Notes: generated by a model from the letters alone, not told the origin. Counted from the first letter of the stretch, positions 17,765 through 29,851 are shown. The stretch: DNA of 32,000 bases from Geotalea uraniireducens Rf4 (GCF_000016745.1 NC_009483.1:2820001-2852000), one strand, 5' to 3'. Numbers and translations are program-made.

Positions 17765-18412
17765 TCACGGCTGGGGTGCAGTCCGCTCCCGGTCAGACAC
17801 CGTCCCCTCAAAAATCAGCGTCTCCCCCGTGAAGAACCTGCCGCTACCCTGGTGTTCCCAGAAGGTCTCCCTGCCGTCGCTGTAGCGTGCGCCTGAAGCG
17901 GATGGCGCGGCAGGCAGGGTCACACGACGCCCATCCGGCAGGGTAACGGTCACCAGGTTCCGGTCGAGGTCATAGGAAGCTGTTGCCGTTTTCCCATCCG
18001 CGGAACGATAGGTGGCAGTCGTTATGCGTGCTTCAGTAAGAACCGTCACCGTCAGGTCGAAACCTCGCAGCGGCGGGACCTCCTTTTCCCAGGAGCGGCG
18101 GTAGACCAACTTCACGGCTGACGTTCCCGGTTTGAGTGCAAAAACGCGGAAGGTGTACCGCCCGCCGGCACCGATGAGTGAAGAATCAAGCACAAAGGTC
18201 GGCTCGGGATCGGGCATCAGCACTATTCGATCGACATCGGCAAGCTCCCACGTATACCCGGTGGTCGGGTTGCCGTCCAGGGTGATAGAGATGGTCTCCC
18301 CGACAAGGACAGAAACGCTCCTGCCGCCGTCCTTCTCTGTCAGTTCGAGGGCTTTGGTAATGCAGGGAAACAGAAGTACGAGTAGCAGCGTGCACAGTGA
18401 CGCAAGGTTCAT
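17765..18412 (-). CDS. Exported fusion of a chagasin-type (I42) cysteine-protease inhibitor domain and a MliC-type lysozyme inhibitor domain
   Basis: Signal peptide MNLASLCTLLLVLLFPCITKA. Chagasin motifs GNPTTGYTWE, GAGG and RRSWE. The C-terminal half ATYRSADGKT..SGARYSDGRETFWEHQG matches the MliC/PliC pattern. ATG 18412 follows GGGGAGGG. Confidence 0.75.
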   Translation of the reverse strand: MNLASLCTLLLVLLFPCITKALELTEKDGGRSVSVLVGETISITLDGNPTTGYTWELADVDRIVLMPDPEPTFVLDSSLIGAGGRYTFRVFALKPGTSAVKLVYRRSWEKEVPPLRGFDLTVTVLTEARITTATYRSADGKTATASYDLDRNLVTVTLPDGRRVTLPAAPSASGARYSDGRETFWEHQGSGRFFTGETLIFEGTVSDRERTAPQP

Positions 18413-18552
18413 GTCATCCCTCCCCCATCGACGCTTGGAAACTAAATTATATCTTAAAAATTCAGCAGATAAAGACAGGTAGAAAAGTTTAATCAACTGG
18501 TTATAATATCAACAACGGGTAACGTGGACGAGAACGCCGGGAGGTGGCCACC

Positions 18553-19631: not shown

Positions 19632-20009
19632 TCAGACCTGGATGACAAGCTCGGAGTATGCCGACAGAACCCCGTCCATCGTGACCAGGCGGAGCGGTTC
19701 GGAGATGGCTTGCGCGATCAGCATACGGTCGAAGGGATCTTTGTGATGATTGGCAAGCCCGGGGAGAGCAAGGGCGTGTTCGGGGGTTATCGGCAGAGGC
19801 TCGAAGCCGCTCGCGCGTATACCGGCCACTAGCTCGGCGGGGTCGGCTTCAAGCTTGCCGAGCCCGATCTTGATGACGGCCTCCCAGAGCGTTGCCGAGC
19901 TGATGTAGACGGTTTCAGCCTCTTGGATCATGGTCCGGGCAGCCATAGAAAGTTGGGGGGAGTCATCGAGCCACCAGAGGTAGATATGGGTATCGAGCAG
20001 GATTCTCAT
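19632..20009 (-). CDS. vapC: Type II toxin, PIN-domain VapC family
   Basis: MRILLDTHIYLWW (first acidic PIN residue) and ..DPFDRMLIAQA. 125 aa. ATGA overlap with the antitoxin gene. Confidence 0.9.
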   Translation of the reverse strand: MRILLDTHIYLWWLDDSPQLSMAARTMIQEAETVYISSATLWEAVIKIGLGKLEADPAELVAGIRASGFEPLPITPEHALALPGLANHHKDPFDRMLIAQAISEPLRLVTMDGVLSAYSELVIQV

Positions 20010-20245
20010 GCGCCAGCCTCGAAGGCATCGAGAACGTCATCGGGGAGAGGCGAGTCGAAGTCATCGGCAACCCTGATTTTCCCCTTCAGATAGCCGGGCC
20101 TGCGGACGGGCCTCTTCGCGCTATAGGGAACGAGCCGCGCCATAGGTTTATTCCCCCTGGCAATGACGACCTCTTCCCCCTCCTGGATCTCGTCAAGGAG
20201 ACGGGAGAGGTTTGTTTTCGCCTCATGCGTGTTGACGACCGCCAT
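20006..20245 (-). CDS. Type II antitoxin, Phd/YefM family
   Basis: MAVVNTHEAKTNLSRLLDEIQEGEEVVIARGNKPMARLVP is the canonical Phd/YefM N-terminus. 79 aa, directly upstream of vapC. Confidence 0.9.
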   Translation of the reverse strand: MAVVNTHEAKTNLSRLLDEIQEGEEVVIARGNKPMARLVPYSAKRPVRRPGYLKGKIRVADDFDSPLPDDVLDAFEAGA

Positions 20246-20477: not shown

Positions 20478-20915
20478 TTATTCTCTTTCCTCTTCCGTCA
20501 CTTTGTCCGCTTCGGCGTTACAGCGCTCTACCACTTCCCTGAGCCAGGCAATCTCATCGGGGAGAAACTGCTTTGAGTAGGGGGTGCCCACATTCAGCGC
20601 CCAGCGCAGTGGCGGCTGCGTCGTGGCGGCGAGCACATGCCCCGGCACCTCGACGCTGTCCACCTTGGCCTGCGCCCAGGCTTGCACACGCTCTTCGCTG
20701 TCGAAGAGCATCAGGTAGTCGTTTCCCTCCGACTCGATCACCAGCGGCAGCACCTGCCCTTCCGCACCACCTTCGCCTGCTTCAATCGCGTCCTGCTCGT
20801 TCAGGGTCGGGACGAAAAACGTGCTATTGAGGAAAAGATCATAAAACTTCGATTGGCTCTTGGCGTCGTTCATATCCTGGCGCAGGGTCTCCAGCGCCTT
20901 GTCCATTTCTGTCAT
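20478..20915 (-). CDS. SseB-family protein
   Basis: ..FYDLFLNSTFFVP....LPLVIESEGNDYLMLFDSEERVQAW.. matches the SseB N-terminal domain pattern. AAGGAG lies 7 nt upstream of ATG 20915. Confidence 0.65.
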   Translation of the reverse strand: MTEMDKALETLRQDMNDAKSQSKFYDLFLNSTFFVPTLNEQDAIEAGEGGAEGQVLPLVIESEGNDYLMLFDSEERVQAWAQAKVDSVEVPGHVLAATTQPPLRWALNVGTPYSKQFLPDEIAWLREVVERCNAEADKVTEEERE

Positions 20916-20991
20916 GGTTAACTCCTTTCGTTGCTTCATTGTTGTGGGGACGACCCGGCGCCCTCCCCTTCAGACTTCCTTCCCCTTTTAT

Positions 20992-21359: not shown

Positions 21360-21557
21360 ATTGGTCAGCTACTTCGAACTAGCATAAATTTGTTCGTACT
21401 TTAACGCGAATAGACTGATTTATAAAGCATGTAGGATAAATTATGAAATAAAAACAGATTATCAGGGCAAGTTGTAAACTTGATTACAGCAGATAGATAA
21501 ACAGACAAGAGCGTCCCCCGTGGTTTCCGATGGGTGCTCCGGTACCTATTGTTACCT

Positions 21558-21591
21558 AAAAATAAAAAAACTTCACGTTAAAACCGTGAAG
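21558..21591 (-). terminator. Rho-independent terminator downstream of the MBL hydrolase gene (bidirectional shape)
   Basis: Stem CTTCACG/CGTGAAG (21571-21577 / 21585-21591) with a 7-nt loop. On the minus strand it is followed by TTTTTTTATTTT. On the plus strand it is followed by TTTTGATTTT. Confidence 0.6.
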
Positions 21592-21603
21592 TTTTGATTT
21601 TCT

Positions 21604-21626: not shown

Positions 21627-21640
21627 ATAGTCACACGTGA

Positions 21641-22906
21641 TCAACTCTTCTTCGTAGTACATGCTCTGTAAAGGTCCGCCGGAATGACATTTGCGAGAAG
21701 GGTGTTGTTAAACTGGGCTAGTGGACCATGATATTTGGGATGCGCCAGTGTTCCTTTGAGTGGGTCACCTTTATACCATGGATAATCCGGAACGACAGCC
21801 ATGGCCTGTTGAATCGTCTTATCCTTGTTGATAGTGATTACCAGCAGATCCGTGGCGATGGTAACATCACCACCGTAAAAGCAGCGAATATCAGCGTAGG
21901 CTGGATCGATGAGATCCGGATCATTCGGGAAATGTGTGGCCACTCCCAACCTGGGCTGGGTCTGGCTCATAATATAGCCGAAAGCTGATTGCAAGGTGTG
22001 GGAGTTCTCAATTACTTCTGCATTTAACGCTAGTACCTTGTAATAGCCTTCATCCCCTGGTTTGAGTCCTGTCTCCTTGGTTGTCCAGACGTCGGCGGGA
22101 GCGGCCATCTCATGGATCAGTATGTCAACCCCTTGTGCATGCTCAAGCACATAGTTGTTGGGCTTCGTGTCTCCGGTAAATACCATTGAGATCCCATTCC
22201 ACTCCAACTTGTAGCTAATGGAGCCATCCCGTGCATGTATGGCCGGAAAATGGGAGATTTTCACACCATTTTTGTGATAGGCAATACCCGGGTTTTTCAT
22301 GTAGCGCAACTCTTTGACTTTTAAATCGTAGCCATCACCGTCCCCTTTGTAGCCGGTAGGCAGGAAACTGAAGCTCTCCCGATGCCACTTAGCCATCTCC
22401 AGCAATTTCTTGCAGAAGAACCACGTCCCTTCGTTTTTCGTATCTCCGCTCGGCCCCCACACATTGAGAGCGCTTTTGCGGTCAGACGCGGGGCCAAAAC
22501 AGTAAATGGTCGTAAGATCGCTCATGTGATCCCCGTGCAAGTGGGTCAGAAACACCTTGTCCATCCTGCTGTATGGCACCCCCAGAGCAACATATTTGGC
22601 CACAACGCCTGATCCGCAGTCAAAGACGAACTGGTCCAAAGGCTTCCCGTTTTCACCGCCACCCACCTCGACATAGATACTGTTGCAAGCCTGGTTGATC
22701 CGGGGTGTATACCAGGTTCCACAAAATGTTATGCGCATCTCATCCGGCCCCAATGCTGTTCCAGGCTGGAAGCTCTGGTTTAATGTCTGCTGGCCGTTAG
22801 TATCTCCGGATGCAAGTGCCACTTGCCCGAGAGCATTGCCCGCTATGCATGCTCCGATTCCTAACCCGGAGATTTTCAACATGTCCCGACGTGAGATCTT
22901 TCCCAT
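21641..22906 (-). CDS. Tat-exported MBL-fold metallo-hydrolase
   Basis: AGGAGG lies 6 nt upstream of ATG 22906. Twin-arginine signal is MGKISRRDMLKISGLGIGACIAGNALGQVALA. The metallo-beta-lactamase motif is THLHGDHMSD. It is visibly lower in GC than the left 21 kb. Confidence 0.85.
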   Translation of the reverse strand: MGKISRRDMLKISGLGIGACIAGNALGQVALASGDTNGQQTLNQSFQPGTALGPDEMRITFCGTWYTPRINQACNSIYVEVGGGENGKPLDQFVFDCGSGVVAKYVALGVPYSRMDKVFLTHLHGDHMSDLTTIYCFGPASDRKSALNVWGPSGDTKNEGTWFFCKKLLEMAKWHRESFSFLPTGYKGDGDGYDLKVKELRYMKNPGIAYHKNGVKISHFPAIHARDGSISYKLEWNGISMVFTGDTKPNNYVLEHAQGVDILIHEMAAPADVWTTKETGLKPGDEGYYKVLALNAEVIENSHTLQSAFGYIMSQTQPRLGVATHFPNDPDLIDPAYADIRCFYGGDVTIATDLLVITINKDKTIQQAMAVVPDYPWYKGDPLKGTLAHPKYHGPLAQFNNTLLANVIPADLYRACTTKKS

Positions 22907-23022
22907 AACGTCCTCCTTTGTGTTTTTAAAATCTAAACACATCCCGATTGTAAACCCGACTCGTTTTCTCTTTCAGCACTCGCGCTGTGTATCAAGAGTC
23001 TTGGCTTGCCGTATTCTCGTTT

Positions 23023-23073
23023 AAAAAAACAAAGGCCGAGCAAACCAAAGGAACAACCTTCGGCAGCCCGGCC
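23023..23073 (-). terminator. Intrinsic terminator forming the expression platform of the riboswitch
   Basis: Minus strand: GGCCGGGCUGCCGAAGG-UUGUU-CCUUUGGUUUGCUCGGCC (imperfect long hairpin), then UUUGUUUUUUU (23033-23023). It lies 117 nt upstream of the MBL start codon. Confidence 0.6.
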
Positions 23074-23136
23074 ATCTTCATCTGAAGACCCGTTGCTTTC
23101 CGCCCCCCTCTCACGAAAGGTTTGGCTTTTTCGGTA
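23055..23136 (-). promoter_or_regulatory. c-di-GMP-I (GEMM-I)-type riboswitch aptamer
   Basis: Minus-strand RNA: UACCGAAAAAG-CC-AAA-CCUUUC-GUGA-GAGGGG-GG-CGG-A-AAGCAACGGGUCUUCAGAUGAAGAUGGCCGGGCUG-C-CGAAGGUU. The core aligns with Vc2 from memory (G-GC-AAA-CCAUUC-GAAA-GAGUGG-GA-CGC-A-AAGCC...GGGGUUA-C-CGAUGG). It has a GNRA tetraloop, an AAA bulge, and a compensatory GC>CC / GC>GG pair. Confidence 0.7.
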
Positions 23137-23172
23137 TATAGATTAACTATCGTAGATATAACATTAAAAATC

Positions 23173-23200
23173 ATTATATCTCTAAGATAGTTCTCGTCAA
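23173..23200 (-). promoter_or_regulatory. Near-consensus sigma70 promoter driving the riboswitch leader
   Basis: Minus strand: TTGACG (23200-23195), 16-nt spacer, TATAAT (23178-23173). The predicted TSS is about 30 nt before the aptamer. Confidence 0.55.
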
Positions 23201-23478
23201 TACTAGCTGTCGACTTATCTGGATTTCAGGGAGATGCCGCTGAATGGATGGAGACAGTTAGGGTGACTTGAAAGTTTGAGTACGCAGGCTCTAATCAAGT
23301 TATCAAGAAAGTATCTGACACGTTCCTTTCCTTGATCGCCTGGCTGTCATGGCGGGAGTGGTGGAGGCGTCAGGGAAGGCCAGAGAAGATTGTTTGAAAT
23401 TAACCTTTGCCGTTATATACTTAGAACGCCAAACATTGAGCGATCAGGAGACGGAAAGAAGCATACTAAGGAGTCATT

Positions 23479-23679: not shown

Positions 23680-25014
23680 CAGTAACTTCCGGTTAGGTTT
23701 TTGCACGACGTTTCTTACGTTTCAACTGTCTAATTTTGTTTGAGTTACCTTGTATTCTTGTGCGACGGCTCTGCTGTTCGGCTGCTGCTTCATTTGCAAT
23801 CTGATTGCGTAATTCTCGTACCCTGCTAATGCTGACTGGCTCCTGGTGCTGCTCACGGCAATAGATGGCTAGCAGCAGATAGGTGATGAGACCACCAAGT
23901 ATTTGAACCATGAGACCATATTCGCTTCTGGCAATCAGGTGATACACCTTTAGGTGGCGTTTCCACCAACCGAAGAAGGTCTCTATGTTCCAGCGCAGTT
24001 TATAAACCTGGGCCACTTCTTCAGCCGTCAGGTCGTATCTGTTGGTTGCTACCCAGTAGTCCTTGCCGTCAATACGGTAACCAACAAGGCGCAGCTCTTT
24101 CTCAGTCTGGTTTATACCTTTGGTGCCGAGAAGTACTATCTGGTCATAGAAGACAATACTGTCAGGATTTACGGCATTCTCTCTGATGACGGTTTTGTGT
24201 GTATTCTCCCTGATACGGCAGACAAAAAACTTCTCGGCGGCCTGCCACTGGTCAAAGTGATTATGAGACTGATACCCACGATCCATGACACCGGTTTCGC
24301 CTTTGTCGATGATCTTATCAACAAAGGGGCGCTCACCCTCTTTACCGTCGGTCAGGAATATCTTCCTTGGAATACCACGGTTGATATCGAAGCCGATATG
24401 GGCCTTGGCCTTCTTAGAGCCGCTTCGGTAATCTGCCCATTCCATAGATAGAACAGCATCTATCAAAGAACCGTCTATGGATACCAGATTGCCAAGGTGA
24501 GCATATTCATCGGGAAGCACTCTGCCTGCTTGCTTGACAAGATGCCCGAATACCTCGGAAAGCTGTTCAAGACCACGGTTGTTGATTGCCTCAAAGAAAG
24601 AGCTCTTTTTGATTCCCTTGGGGGGAGCAACACATTCCTTGGCGAAGTCATCCTGATCCAGCGCCTGGAGAAGTTCGCTCCCGGAAGAGAACTCTTCCAA
24701 GTGATAAAAGATCAGGGCTTTTAGCTGATCATCGAAAGTCATTTGCAACGGGCGATACCCCCTGGATTCAAGTTCATTATCTGACTTGAATCTCTCAAAA
24801 ATCGGGGTAAGAAGCAATTTGAAAGCGCGTGATTTTCGTCTTTGTTTCAGTCGTTTGAACGGTCGCATATCGTAACTCCTGTAATATTGGATAGTTACGA
24901 GTGCGGACCACCGTTTTTTTACTCAAAGTCAAGCAAATAATGCGGTATAACGCTGATTTTACAACTTTTTTACATTCTCAAAGAACCTTGCAAAGACCAA
25001 ACCGGACAATGCTG
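23680..25014 (-). mobile_element. IS4-family insertion sequence (1335 bp) with 9-bp target-site duplication
   Basis: The direct repeat ATGTTTAGT is at 23671-23679 and 25015-25023. Imperfect terminal IRs are CAGTAACTTCCGGTTAGGTTTTTGC (left) and CAGCATTGTCCGGTTTGGTCTTTGC (right, reverse complement). There is a single DDE transposase ORF. Confidence 0.85.
23693..24868 (-). CDS. IS4-family DDE transposase
   Basis: 391 aa with DDE_Tnp_1-like segments (..VSIDGS.., ..GVMDRGY.., ..YKLRWNIETFFGWWKRHL..). The stop codon lies inside the left IR. Confidence 0.9.
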   Translation of the reverse strand: MRPFKRLKQRRKSRAFKLLLTPIFERFKSDNELESRGYRPLQMTFDDQLKALIFYHLEEFSSGSELLQALDQDDFAKECVAPPKGIKKSSFFEAINNRGLEQLSEVFGHLVKQAGRVLPDEYAHLGNLVSIDGSLIDAVLSMEWADYRSGSKKAKAHIGFDINRGIPRKIFLTDGKEGERPFVDKIIDKGETGVMDRGYQSHNHFDQWQAAEKFFVCRIRENTHKTVIRENAVNPDSIVFYDQIVLLGTKGINQTEKELRLVGYRIDGKDYWVATNRYDLTAEEVAQVYKLRWNIETFFGWWKRHLKVYHLIARSEYGLMVQILGGLITYLLLAIYCREQHQEPVSISRVRELRNQIANEAAAEQQSRRTRIQGNSNKIRQLKRKKRRAKT

Positions 25015-25280: not shown

Positions 25281-26602
25281 GGCTCTTCGTCATTTCAAGT
25301 GGGTAGAGCATATAGCCTGTTGAACTTGAGCCTACCTGCAATGAGGTAGGCCATTGATATCATGTTGCGAGGGTTGCGATACCCTCGGGCTCTTGCTTTT
25401 GCTGCCTGGATCAGGCTATTTACCCCCTCCAGGAAGCCGGTGGTCAGACCGCTGTCAAAGTGGCTCAAGATACCATCCCAATGCTCATTTACCGTTCGGG
25501 ACATTTTTTTAATAAGCCAGAGTGAACTTTTACTGGCGCTCTTGTGCCATTGAGTTAAGAGAGCCTCAGCTTCATGACGACTCTCGGCAAAGTAGACATT
25601 CTGCAGATTCAGCTTGTGCGTGTATGCCTCGACGCTTTTATGGCATTGGTTGGCAACTATGGTATCCAGTCGTTCCTGGTCTTCTGGCGTCAAGTTTTCT
25701 GGATTTTTGAGGAACAGGAACCGACTCTTCTTGAGAATTTCCGGGAACTGTCGGGCCTCTTCGGCCCTGATTTTACCCATCGCTTCATTCATCAACTTGA
25801 TGAGGTGAAACTTGTCGAAGGTCGTGACCGCGTTGGGTAACTGCTCTTTGACTCCCTTGATGAAGGCTTTTGACATGTCAATTGCCGCATCGGTTATCTG
25901 CTCAGGATCGCCGCCATGCTTCGCGAGGTCGGCAACAAAGTCCTTTACGGTCTCGTTGTCTTTGCCTTCGGTTCCGAACAGGAGTTTCTTCTGATCAAGA
26001 TCGAAGAAGAAGGTGACGTAATCATGGCCTTTTTTAACAGAGGTTTCATCGATGCCGATACGCTTGACGTCGGAAAAATCCTCTTTAGCTCGGGCCATTT
26101 CTACGTAGGCGTTGATTATTCGCCATAAGCGGGTATCGGTAACTGAGAACAGTCTGGCCATGACATTCACCGGCAGATCACGCGCCATGGTCATAACCAG
26201 CGCTTCGAACAACAGAGTAAAACCTGATCCGGCACGAGCCCATGGCACCTGAATTTGCTTCACGCCACAGCCTTCGTTAGGACAGTTAACCCGTGGCACC
26301 CAGGCATGAATATATGCTTCATATTGGAAGAAGTTCAGATGTCGCCATTCCTTCTCTGTGGTGTCATATGCAGGGGCAGGGGCACCACAGACCGGGCAGG
26401 GAAACGTTGCTCCCCGCTGAAAGTCGATGGTTATATCAAGGCGATTTGATTCCTTAGAAAAGGTAACCTCCGTAACTTCCCAGGGTGGGACAATGCCAAG
26501 AGCTACACCAAAAAGAGCTTCAGGTTGCATAAATCAGTAAAACCTCCGGGTAATGTAATGGATGCTCATTATACCATTACCCATTCACGGTGACGAAGAG
26601 CG
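25281..26602 (-). mobile_element. ISL3-family insertion sequence (1322 bp) with 8-bp target-site duplication
   Basis: The TSD TTAAAAAA is at 25273-25280 and 26603-26610. IRs are GGCTCTTCGTCATTTCAAGTGGGTA (left) and CGCTCTTCGTCACCGTGAATGGGTA (right, reverse complement). Confidence 0.85.
25295..26530 (-). CDS. ISL3-family transposase
   Basis: 411 aa. N-terminal zinc-finger region (CPVCGAP...CPNEGCG), then an ISL3 DDE core (IGIDETSVKKGHDYVTFFFDL.., AIDMSKAF.., FDKFHLIKL.., GFLEGVNSLIQAAKARARGYRN). Confidence 0.9.
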   Translation of the reverse strand: MQPEALFGVALGIVPPWEVTEVTFSKESNRLDITIDFQRGATFPCPVCGAPAPAYDTTEKEWRHLNFFQYEAYIHAWVPRVNCPNEGCGVKQIQVPWARAGSGFTLLFEALVMTMARDLPVNVMARLFSVTDTRLWRIINAYVEMARAKEDFSDVKRIGIDETSVKKGHDYVTFFFDLDQKKLLFGTEGKDNETVKDFVADLAKHGGDPEQITDAAIDMSKAFIKGVKEQLPNAVTTFDKFHLIKLMNEAMGKIRAEEARQFPEILKKSRFLFLKNPENLTPEDQERLDTIVANQCHKSVEAYTHKLNLQNVYFAESRHEAEALLTQWHKSASKSSLWLIKKMSRTVNEHWDGILSHFDSGLTTGFLEGVNSLIQAAKARARGYRNPRNMISMAYLIAGRLKFNRLYALPT

Positions 26603-28443: not shown

Positions 28444-29851
28444 TGACAAGTGTCAGGACATCGGTTACCCGGATGTGTCAAGACATCGGTTACCCTTAAC
28501 GCCCTTTTTTGTGTCAAGACATCGGTTACCTTCATTAGAAATATCAGCTACAATGTTCTCTGTGATTTCAACTTGAGGGGAGAACATCCGCATGGAAGAA
28601 GAACTCAGGAAACAAGCAGTCCAGCGCCATCTTGCAGGCGAATCACCCAAGGCAGTCTATACAAGCCTTGATCGCTCCAAGAAGTGGTTTTTTAAGTGGT
28701 TGAACCGGTATCAATCTGGCGCGACTGACTGGTACAAGGAACACTCAAGAGCGCCACTTAAAAGACCGTCTGAACTCAGCATCGTAGATAAGGAGATTAT
28801 TGTCTCCACCAGAAACCGCCTGGACTCGTCACCATTTGCACAGATTGGCGTTTCCGCTATCAAGTGGGAGCTGCATAAGCTGGGGTTACCGTTTCGCTCT
28901 GACAGCACCATTAACCGGACCCTGAAGCGGGAAGGACTCGTTAAAAAAAACGAGATATTCCCCCAAAGGGGTCGAGTACCCGTACTTTACCGAAGCCCTG
29001 TGCTGCAACAACATCCATCAGATGGATCTTGTTGGCCCCCGCTACATCAAGAGTGACGGCAGATTTTACTCGATGAATGTGATTGATCTGTACAGCCATC
29101 GGGTCTTCATCGAATCAAATCGCACCAAGGAGGATGACAACATTGCACAGGGTTTGCTGCGCTGCTGGAAGTCAATGGGGCTTCCCGACTTCCTGCAAAT
29201 GGACAATGAACTCAGTTTCCGTGGCAGTAACCGCTATCCGAGGTCACTTGGTCTGGTGCTGCGACTATGTCTCTACTTCGGCGTTCATCCTGTTTTTATC
29301 CCTGTTGCGGAACCGTGGCGCGATGGCGTAATAGAGAGCTTCAACGATACCTATGACAAAAAGTTTTTTCGCCGCCAGTGGTTCACAAGCTATTCCATGC
29401 TCAAGCGGCAAAGCAAGAATTTCCAGCAGTTTCACAACAAGAATCACCGTTACAGCTATCTCAAGGGGAAAACGCCACTGGAGGTTATTGAAGCTGACAA
29501 ATTCAAGCCCTTGACGCTGGGGCCAAATACCAGGATGCCAAAACTTGATTTTCTCCCGGACGGCACCATTTCGCTCATTAGATTTATCAGGAGCGATAGA
29601 ACACTTAACATCTTTGGCGAAAAATTTGAGGTTTCAAAAGACCTCGTCTATTCATATGTGCGAGCCATGATCGTAACGGAAATTCACACGCTGCAAGTGT
29701 ACCTGGGTGAAGACTTTGTTCAAAGCTTTGAGTACAGAATGCCTACAGAGTTCAGCTCATGAAATAGTATGCATAATCAGGGGGTCGGGTAACCGATGTC
29801 CTGACACTTTTTAGAGTTAGGCTTGGGTAACCGATGTCCTGACATTTGACA
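28444..29851 (+). mobile_element. rve-integrase-type IS (IS481/IS3-superfamily-like, 1408 bp), TG..CA ends, 6-bp TSD
   Basis: The TSD GTTAAG is at 28438-28443 and 29852-29857. Ends are TGACAAGTGTCAGG... and ...CCTGACATTTGACA. The 20-bp motif TGTCA(G/A)GACATCGGTTACC(C) occurs three times at the left (28451, 28476, 28512) and twice inverted at the right (29787-29806, 29825-29844). Confidence 0.75.
28592..29762 (+). CDS. IS transposase (HTH plus rve DDE core) split into two frames at an A8 run
   Basis: orfA 28592.. encodes an HTH region (..SLDRSKKWFFKWLNRY..). The +1 frame continues from the A8 run (28943-28950) as ..KTRYSPKGVEYPYFTEALCCNNIHQMDLVGPRYIKSDGRFYSMNVIDLYSHRV..MDNELSF..FIPVAEPWRDGVIESFN.. 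An A7 run would give one ORF of about 390 aa. Confidence 0.7.

Follow-up and report, generated by a model that had tools for sequence, protein, structure and literature searches.

The window analysed here is a stretch of 32,000 nucleotides from Geotalea uraniireducens Rf4. It carries on its minus strand a gene for an MBL-fold hydrolase, preceded by a sigma-70-type promoter, a riboswitch aptamer and an intrinsic terminator that overlaps the 3' part of the aptamer. A ribosome-binding site (RBS) lies directly before the gene and a further terminator behind it. The features of this unit, in the direction of transcription, are as follows.

23173..23200, minus strand: sigma-70-type promoter, TTGACG (-35, 23200..23195), 16-nt spacer and TATAAT (-10, 23178..23173), matching 11/12 consensus positions
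23058..23135, minus strand: c-di-GMP-I (GEMM-I) aptamer, 78 nt, from Rfam covariance models
23126, minus strand: G equivalent to Vc2 G20, aptamer position 10, directly 5' of the P1a pair in the Rfam alignments
23099, minus strand: A equivalent to Vc2 A47, the first base past the P1a 3' strand in the Rfam alignments
23063, minus strand: C equivalent to Vc2 C92, part of an unpaired G-C dinucleotide that separates P2 from the P1 3' strand (RF03167 alignment)
23034..23073, minus strand: intrinsic terminator hairpin, -29.9 kcal/mol, z = -5.2 against shuffles
23023..23033, minus strand: terminator U-tract UUUGUUUUUUU, read from the sequence
22912..22917, minus strand: RBS AGGAGG, 5 nt ahead of the ATG at 22906, read from the sequence
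21641..22906, minus strand: MBL-fold hydrolase gene of the PNGM-1/'GntH' family, 421 aa, from Pfam, NCBIfam and a structure match
21557..21595, minus strand: intrinsic terminator behind the hydrolase gene, an 11-bp stem followed by TTTATTTTTA

The aptamer is a member of the c-di-GMP-I / GEMM-I family. In an Rfam scan (cmscan) the full aptamer matches RF03167 (c-di-GMP-I-GGC) with 69.4 bits against a gathering threshold of 59 (E = 1e-14). A second family of the clan is also above threshold on the full copy, where it is masked by clan competition because the scan shows the best family per clan only. With the first 10 nt of the aptamer removed, RF01051 (canonical c-di-GMP-I) has 48.9 bits against a threshold of 35, and RF03167 scores 53.7 and falls below its cut of 59. 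A covariance-model score above the gathering threshold was the check proposed in the sequence-only reading of this DNA, and the 82-nt GEMM-I-like element described there at 23136-23055 is the Rfam element (23135..23058) with one to three extra bases at each end. No further Rfam family is above threshold anywhere in the 32-kb window. A second, weak model match at 23419-23474 (14 bits, E = 0.39) is not significant.

Two stems of 2 bp and 6 bp, a conserved 3-nt AAA loop, a GNRA tetraloop and an AAA linker to P2 define GEMM-I (PMC1950547), and this layout is present in the window as CC-AAA-CCUUUC-GUGA-GAGGGG-GGC-GG-AAA-GC. P1a is formed by C11-G36/C12-G35 and is followed by the AAA internal loop, P1b pairs positions 16-21 with 26-31 beneath a GUGA tetraloop, and the AAA linker leads into the P2 hairpin at 39-71. 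P1 consists of C3-G75 and G4-C74; since it is only 2-3 pairs long, its stability rests on ligand binding. The family consensus for P1a is G-C/C-G, and the Rfam alignments bear out both the GNRA loop and the covariation at this pair that had been read from the sequence. The C-G/C-G version is common to more than 100 environmental copies, in a search whose pattern required that pairing. Among 107 distinct related aptamers, in an alignment fitted to the model and therefore biased toward the proposed structure, 92.7% of cells are paired and two-sided changes are found at 13 of the 21 pairs. These values are reached by none of 500 shuffles, and slid controls have at most 47.5% paired.

The promoter that had been noted at 23200-23173 is the sole site of its kind in the window. 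TTGACG-16-TATAAT occurs once in the 32 kb at up to one mismatch and the same spacing, with 0.08 sites expected and at least one present in 8 of 100 shuffles. The -10 box lies about 37 nt before the aptamer, and transcription would be expected to start near 23166. The leader in the window is about 65 nt longer than that of the closest relative, L082, whose hydrolase is 96% identical. The extra segment is located between the terminator and the RBS (window ~22925-23000, minus strand), holds a small hairpin directly before the RBS, and has no second copy in the window. The same segment, missing from L082, also contains a weak promoter-like site, CTGAAA-18-TACAAT (9/12 positions, 22976..22947, minus strand). 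If active, it would lead to expression independent of the riboswitch. An imperfect palindrome (AACTATC..AGATATAA / TTATATCT..GATAGTT) at 23134-23203, which surfaced as a spurious miRNA-like Rfam match, covers the -10 box and the predicted start. As a possible operator it was rejected, being not kept in L082, and it is probably due to chance.

The terminator 5' arm GGCCGGGCUGCCGAAGG (23073..23057) pairs with CCUUUGGU..GCUCGGCC. Of its 17 nt, 16 are aptamer positions 63-78, making up the 3' strands of P2 and P1, and the last is a G just 3' of the Rfam-defined aptamer. The 3' end of the aptamer thus doubles as the 5' arm of a terminator with a U-tract behind it, much as the sequence-only reading had it. 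The hairpin is absent from the list of a simple terminator scanner because its stem has internal bulges. Folding of the predicted transcript 23166..23022 gives a lowest-energy structure with the terminator, at -49.4 kcal/mol, compared with -20.2 kcal/mol when the aptamer pairs are enforced, and the minimum-energy fold of the whole leader likewise has the terminator hairpin in place of P1/P2. The modelling thus shows the predicted aptamer and terminator folds to be mutually exclusive, in agreement with the earlier claim. With the terminator fold far more stable, the default would be termination, and only co-transcriptional capture of the ligand would keep P2 and P1 closed, which points to ligand as the ON signal. 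A GEMM subtype with a GYRA loop and without a tetraloop receptor, in which a terminator overlaps the 3' side of P2 and more ligand gives more expression, was described in 2007, when 78 of 322 GEMM copies had such terminators (PMC1950547).

The hydrolase matches Pfam Lactamase_B_2, and public assemblies contain an identical protein of 421 aa. The unit is monocistronic on account of the terminator behind the gene. The nearest solved structure is PNGM-1 (PDB 6J4N; E = 1e-59, about 320 residues aligned). The HxHxDH metal-binding motif, THLHGDH, aligns to H91/H93/D95/H96 of PNGM-1, and the residue matching His-257 is also conserved. The NCBIfam model NF041257 (GntH_guanitoxin equivalog) scores 340.4 against a cut-off of 333. 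This margin of about 7 bits, the absence of toxin-biosynthesis-like genes among the scanned neighbours and the closeness to PNGM-1 suggest that the name 'guanitoxin biosynthesis GntH' is probably over-specific. The N-terminus, MGKISRRDMLK...ALA, has a twin-arginine motif (SRRDMLK), a hydrophobic stretch and an ALA site, and the RR motif is also found in the L063 and L086 homologs. The gene had previously been taken to encode a Tat-exported MBL hydrolase. The MBL fold and the twin-arginine motif stand; the Tat model TIGR01409 scores 13.1, below its cut-off of 16.7. The protein is putatively exported.

Hydrolase homologs and the sequences upstream of them were compared with the window, with percentages referring to hydrolase identity.

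L082 and L083, 96%: aptamer and terminator identical to those of the window
L084, 81%: aptamer present, interrupted by the contig end
L085, 73%: full aptamer, 69.6 bits
L086, 69%: only ~35 nt from the 5' end of the aptamer; compared with L085, a deletion of ~290 nt that takes in the rest of the aptamer and the terminator
P0010, P0016 and P0017, 66-67%: no riboswitch
L063 (Nitrospirae MAG), 42%: aptamer of 71.3 bits with the same terminator design; a PAS-domain gene lies between it and the hydrolase
79 other genome-derived homologs, 49% or less: no riboswitch

The aptamer, the terminator and their pairing with the hydrolase gene are conserved in metagenomic relatives of the hydrolase (96%, 81% and 73%). 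Over aptamer and terminator L082 is 100% identical to the window, whereas its promoter region and leader have diverged. The -35 and -10 hexamers are nevertheless the same in L082, a TTGACA box is present at a comparable distance in L085 and L063, and the RBS is kept in L082 and L084. In all five distinct leaders (window, L082, L084, L085 and L063) there is a terminator hairpin of -28 to -32 kcal/mol with a U-rich tract, and changes in its 3' arm preserve pairing, a G.U becoming G-C in L084 and A-U in L085 and L063. In L063 the riboswitch, the PAS gene and the hydrolase gene are on one strand and no terminator was detected between them. The weak match in L086 was rejected as a whole aptamer, there being no Rfam match, and the ~35 nt from the 5' end of the aptamer (L086 2950-3025) are a relic of riboswitch loss. 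The deletion would make expression of that hydrolase constitutive, and removal of the switch together with its terminator is the type of loss that would be expected of an ON switch.

The upstream regions of the 80 genome-derived homologs (identity of 49% or less) were searched with a single-sequence covariance model, which recovered the riboswitch in L063 only. An Rfam run on 20 of these 80 loci agrees, and since the custom model picks up divergent GEMM-I copies with as little as 23 bits in other sequences, its failure to find the element here is informative. The CC/GG-type aptamer core was also sought in metagenomes, and of the 120 loci retrieved none has an MBL homolog downstream. This confines the pairing to one hydrolase subclade and L063. 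Among the 29 metagenome copies most like that of the window, a downstream ORF could be called for 19, and roughly half of these 19 ORFs have signal-peptide-like N-termini, which would fit the known GEMM regulon. Clustered GEMM-I aptamers were seen on some of the metagenomic contigs, in pairs on L161 (8451-8530 and 8647-8726) and L197 (809-889 and 985-1069) and as three nearby copies on L108 (4628-4707, 5082-5160 and 5780-5861). Tandem GEMM-I arrangements have already been reported for Deltaproteobacteria, and G. uraniireducens carries about 30 GEMM-I riboswitches.

The unit is located in a stretch of low GC content, 44-50% at 21-27 kb against 57-61% in the flanks. The surroundings in the window include the following.

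17765-18496: fused chagasin-type peptidase inhibitor/MliC lysozyme-inhibitor gene
19632-20245: PhdYeFM/PIN toxin-antitoxin pair
20478-20939: gene for an SseB-domain protein
23693-24868: ISGur4 transposase (IS4 family, many copies in the genome)
25295-26530: ISL3-family element
29022-29762: rve-domain integrase fragment

Three transposase genes are present within 6 kb upstream of the riboswitch-hydrolase unit, and proteins of the window are on record as ABQ26629, ABQ26633, ABQ26641 and ABQ26642. The gene had been placed on an IS-riddled patch. There are IS elements in the low-GC stretch, but the nearest, ISGur4, stops about 470 nt before the -35 box, on its upstream side, and makes no contribution to the unit. 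The window and L082 are homologous only over 23237..21628, covering promoter, riboswitch and gene, which corresponds to L082 3732-5279 at 92-96% identity; the flanks are unrelated. This restriction to a shared block, together with the low GC content, suggests acquisition or movement of the unit as one block. An inverted repeat of 19 nt (84% complementary, 21472-21490 and 23288-23306) flanks the unit. Being outside the stretch common to the window and L082, it was rejected as a mobile-element end, and it is probably a chance occurrence.

The element is most probably a canonical c-di-GMP-I (GEMM-I) riboswitch that acts as a transcriptional ON switch, a reading given a probability of about 0.82. 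RNA polymerase would initiate about 30 nt upstream of the aptamer at the near-consensus sigma-70 promoter. Binding of c-di-GMP to the nascent 78-nt aptamer, through the equivalents of G20, A47 and C92, would hold P2 and P1 shut. With GGCCGGGCUGCCGAAGG then unavailable, the terminator would be blocked, transcription would run on for about 115 nt to the RBS, and read-through would lead to production of the 421-aa hydrolase with its twin-arginine motif. When the ligand is absent, the much more stable terminator hairpin would form and leave a transcript of about 140 nt. Several points go against this reading: most hydrolase homologs are without the riboswitch, the top Rfam model is GGC rather than canonical, P1 is very short, and the weak promoter-like site behind the terminator, if active, could drive the gene independently of the switch.

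Specificity for the ligand depends on the three pocket bases, which the Rfam alignments place at 23126, 23099 and 23063 and which are G, A and C as had been read from the sequence. G20 recognises G-alpha of c-di-GMP, where cGAMP-sensing GEMM-Ib aptamers carry A, A47 intercalates between the two ligand bases, and C92 is Watson-Crick paired to the ligand's G-beta (PMC6140456). On this comparison the pocket carries the canonical c-di-GMP signature, as opposed to the A20 cGAMP type or the GGC variant. With pocket bases and core as in Vc2, selectivity for c-di-GMP is expected, and c-di-GMP is the likely ligand. Of 109 related aptamers, 102 have C at the C92 equivalent. A cGAMP-sensing or bispecific GEMM-Ib riboswitch, with the gene answering 3'3'-cGAMP, might be considered given that the host belongs to the Geobacteraceae, where many GEMM-I copies sense cGAMP, and that some natural aptamers are bispecific (PMC6140456). 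The A20 that defines this type is, however, a G in the window, in every hydrolase-associated relative and in 108 of the 109 relatives aligned, G at this position being part of the pattern that retrieved most of them. Wild-type Vc2, with G20, has picomolar affinity for c-di-GMP and about 10 uM for cGAMP, thus discriminating against the latter by orders of magnitude (PMC6140456), and a cGAMP response is considered improbable. It is very improbable that the element belongs to the c-di-GMP-I-GGC class (RF03167) with an altered pocket suggesting a different ligand. RF03167 is the top family for the window copy and its relatives (69-71 bits against 59), but its consensus at the A47 equivalent is G, 'GGC' being read as positions 20/47/92 from the model consensus ...GACGC-G-AA.... 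The window, L063, L082, L084 and L085 all have A here, like RF01051, and the higher RF03167 score is due to overall similarity in P2 and P1, not to the pocket.

The low GC content of 21-27 kb and the two IS elements there could also indicate a decaying, non-functional copy on a horizontally acquired patch, the gene being expressed from another promoter. The weak internal promoter-like site and the loss of the switch in L086 would suit this. Against it, the perfect conservation of aptamer and terminator between the window and L082 is set in neighbouring non-coding DNA that differs, all pocket bases and helices are intact, and terminator pairing has been maintained through 3'-arm substitutions in four lineages; decay of the copy is accordingly given very little probability. 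A further proposal, speculative and rather unlikely, takes promoter, c-di-GMP ON switch and PNGM-1-like hydrolase as a compact cassette of about 1.6 kb whose regulation is retained when it moves between genomes; under it, the hydrolase might be a periplasmic or extracellular nuclease or phosphodiesterase that remodels matrix nucleic acids.

The riboswitch class, the subtype, the ON design through terminator overlap and the abundance in Geobacter are already established, and the element is one of a known kind. Standard Rfam annotation finds this copy. Clan competition labels aptamers with the G/A/C pocket as RF03167, as in the window (23058-23135), L063 (1219-1295), L082 (3834-3911) and L085 (394-471), and since these aptamers are canonical, automated annotation could mislead on ligand specificity. 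Only the pairing with a PNGM-1-like hydrolase is mildly new. The sequence-only reading knew of no description of a pairing with an exported metallo-hydrolase, and none of GEMM-I with a PNGM-1-like hydrolase was found in the literature searched, as far as its texts were available; such an MBL is not among the gene families in the available part of the 2007 GEMM gene table (PMC1950547). The conservation of a predicted c-di-GMP ON switch before several PNGM-1/'GntH' members gives a testable hint at a place of the enzyme in the exported proteome of the sessile, biofilm state. To our knowledge, no physiological role is known for this MBL-fold family.

PNGM-1 (PDB 6J4N) and the window hydrolase are alike in the HxHxDH motif and the His-257 match, and the window protein differs in having a 45-residue N-terminal extension that contains the twin-arginine motif. 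PNGM-1 itself acts as a very weak beta-lactamase and has tRNase Z-like activity; what it does naturally has yet to be established (PMC6882493).

Among the known RNAs the window element is closest in design to the GYRA subtype of GEMM-I (PMC1950547). The two share the build of two hairpins, the AAA loop and linker, a GNRA tetraloop (GUGA), the G20/A47/C92 bases, a site in the 5'-UTR and a competing terminator. No structural difference is seen except that P1a is C-G/C-G in the window where the consensus is G-C/C-G. An exported product, as predicted for the window gene, would be usual in the 'environment, membranes, motility' regulon. Vc2 (3IRW, 3MXH) has the same pocket nucleotides and core sequence as the window. 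It differs in its GAAA tetraloop and P2 receptor, whereas the window has GUGA and lacks the 11-nt receptor. We know of no description for Vc2 of a terminator-based platform like that of the window. The c-di-GMP-I-GGC model (RF03167) gives the window its best Infernal score, and P2 and P1 are very similar, but the diagnostic G at the A47 equivalent is A in the window. The Geobacter GEMM-Ib cGAMP riboswitches (e.g. Gs1761) have the same fold, occur in the same bacterial family and have the ON-switch terminator design in common with the window, and they differ in carrying A at the position-20 equivalent where the window has G.
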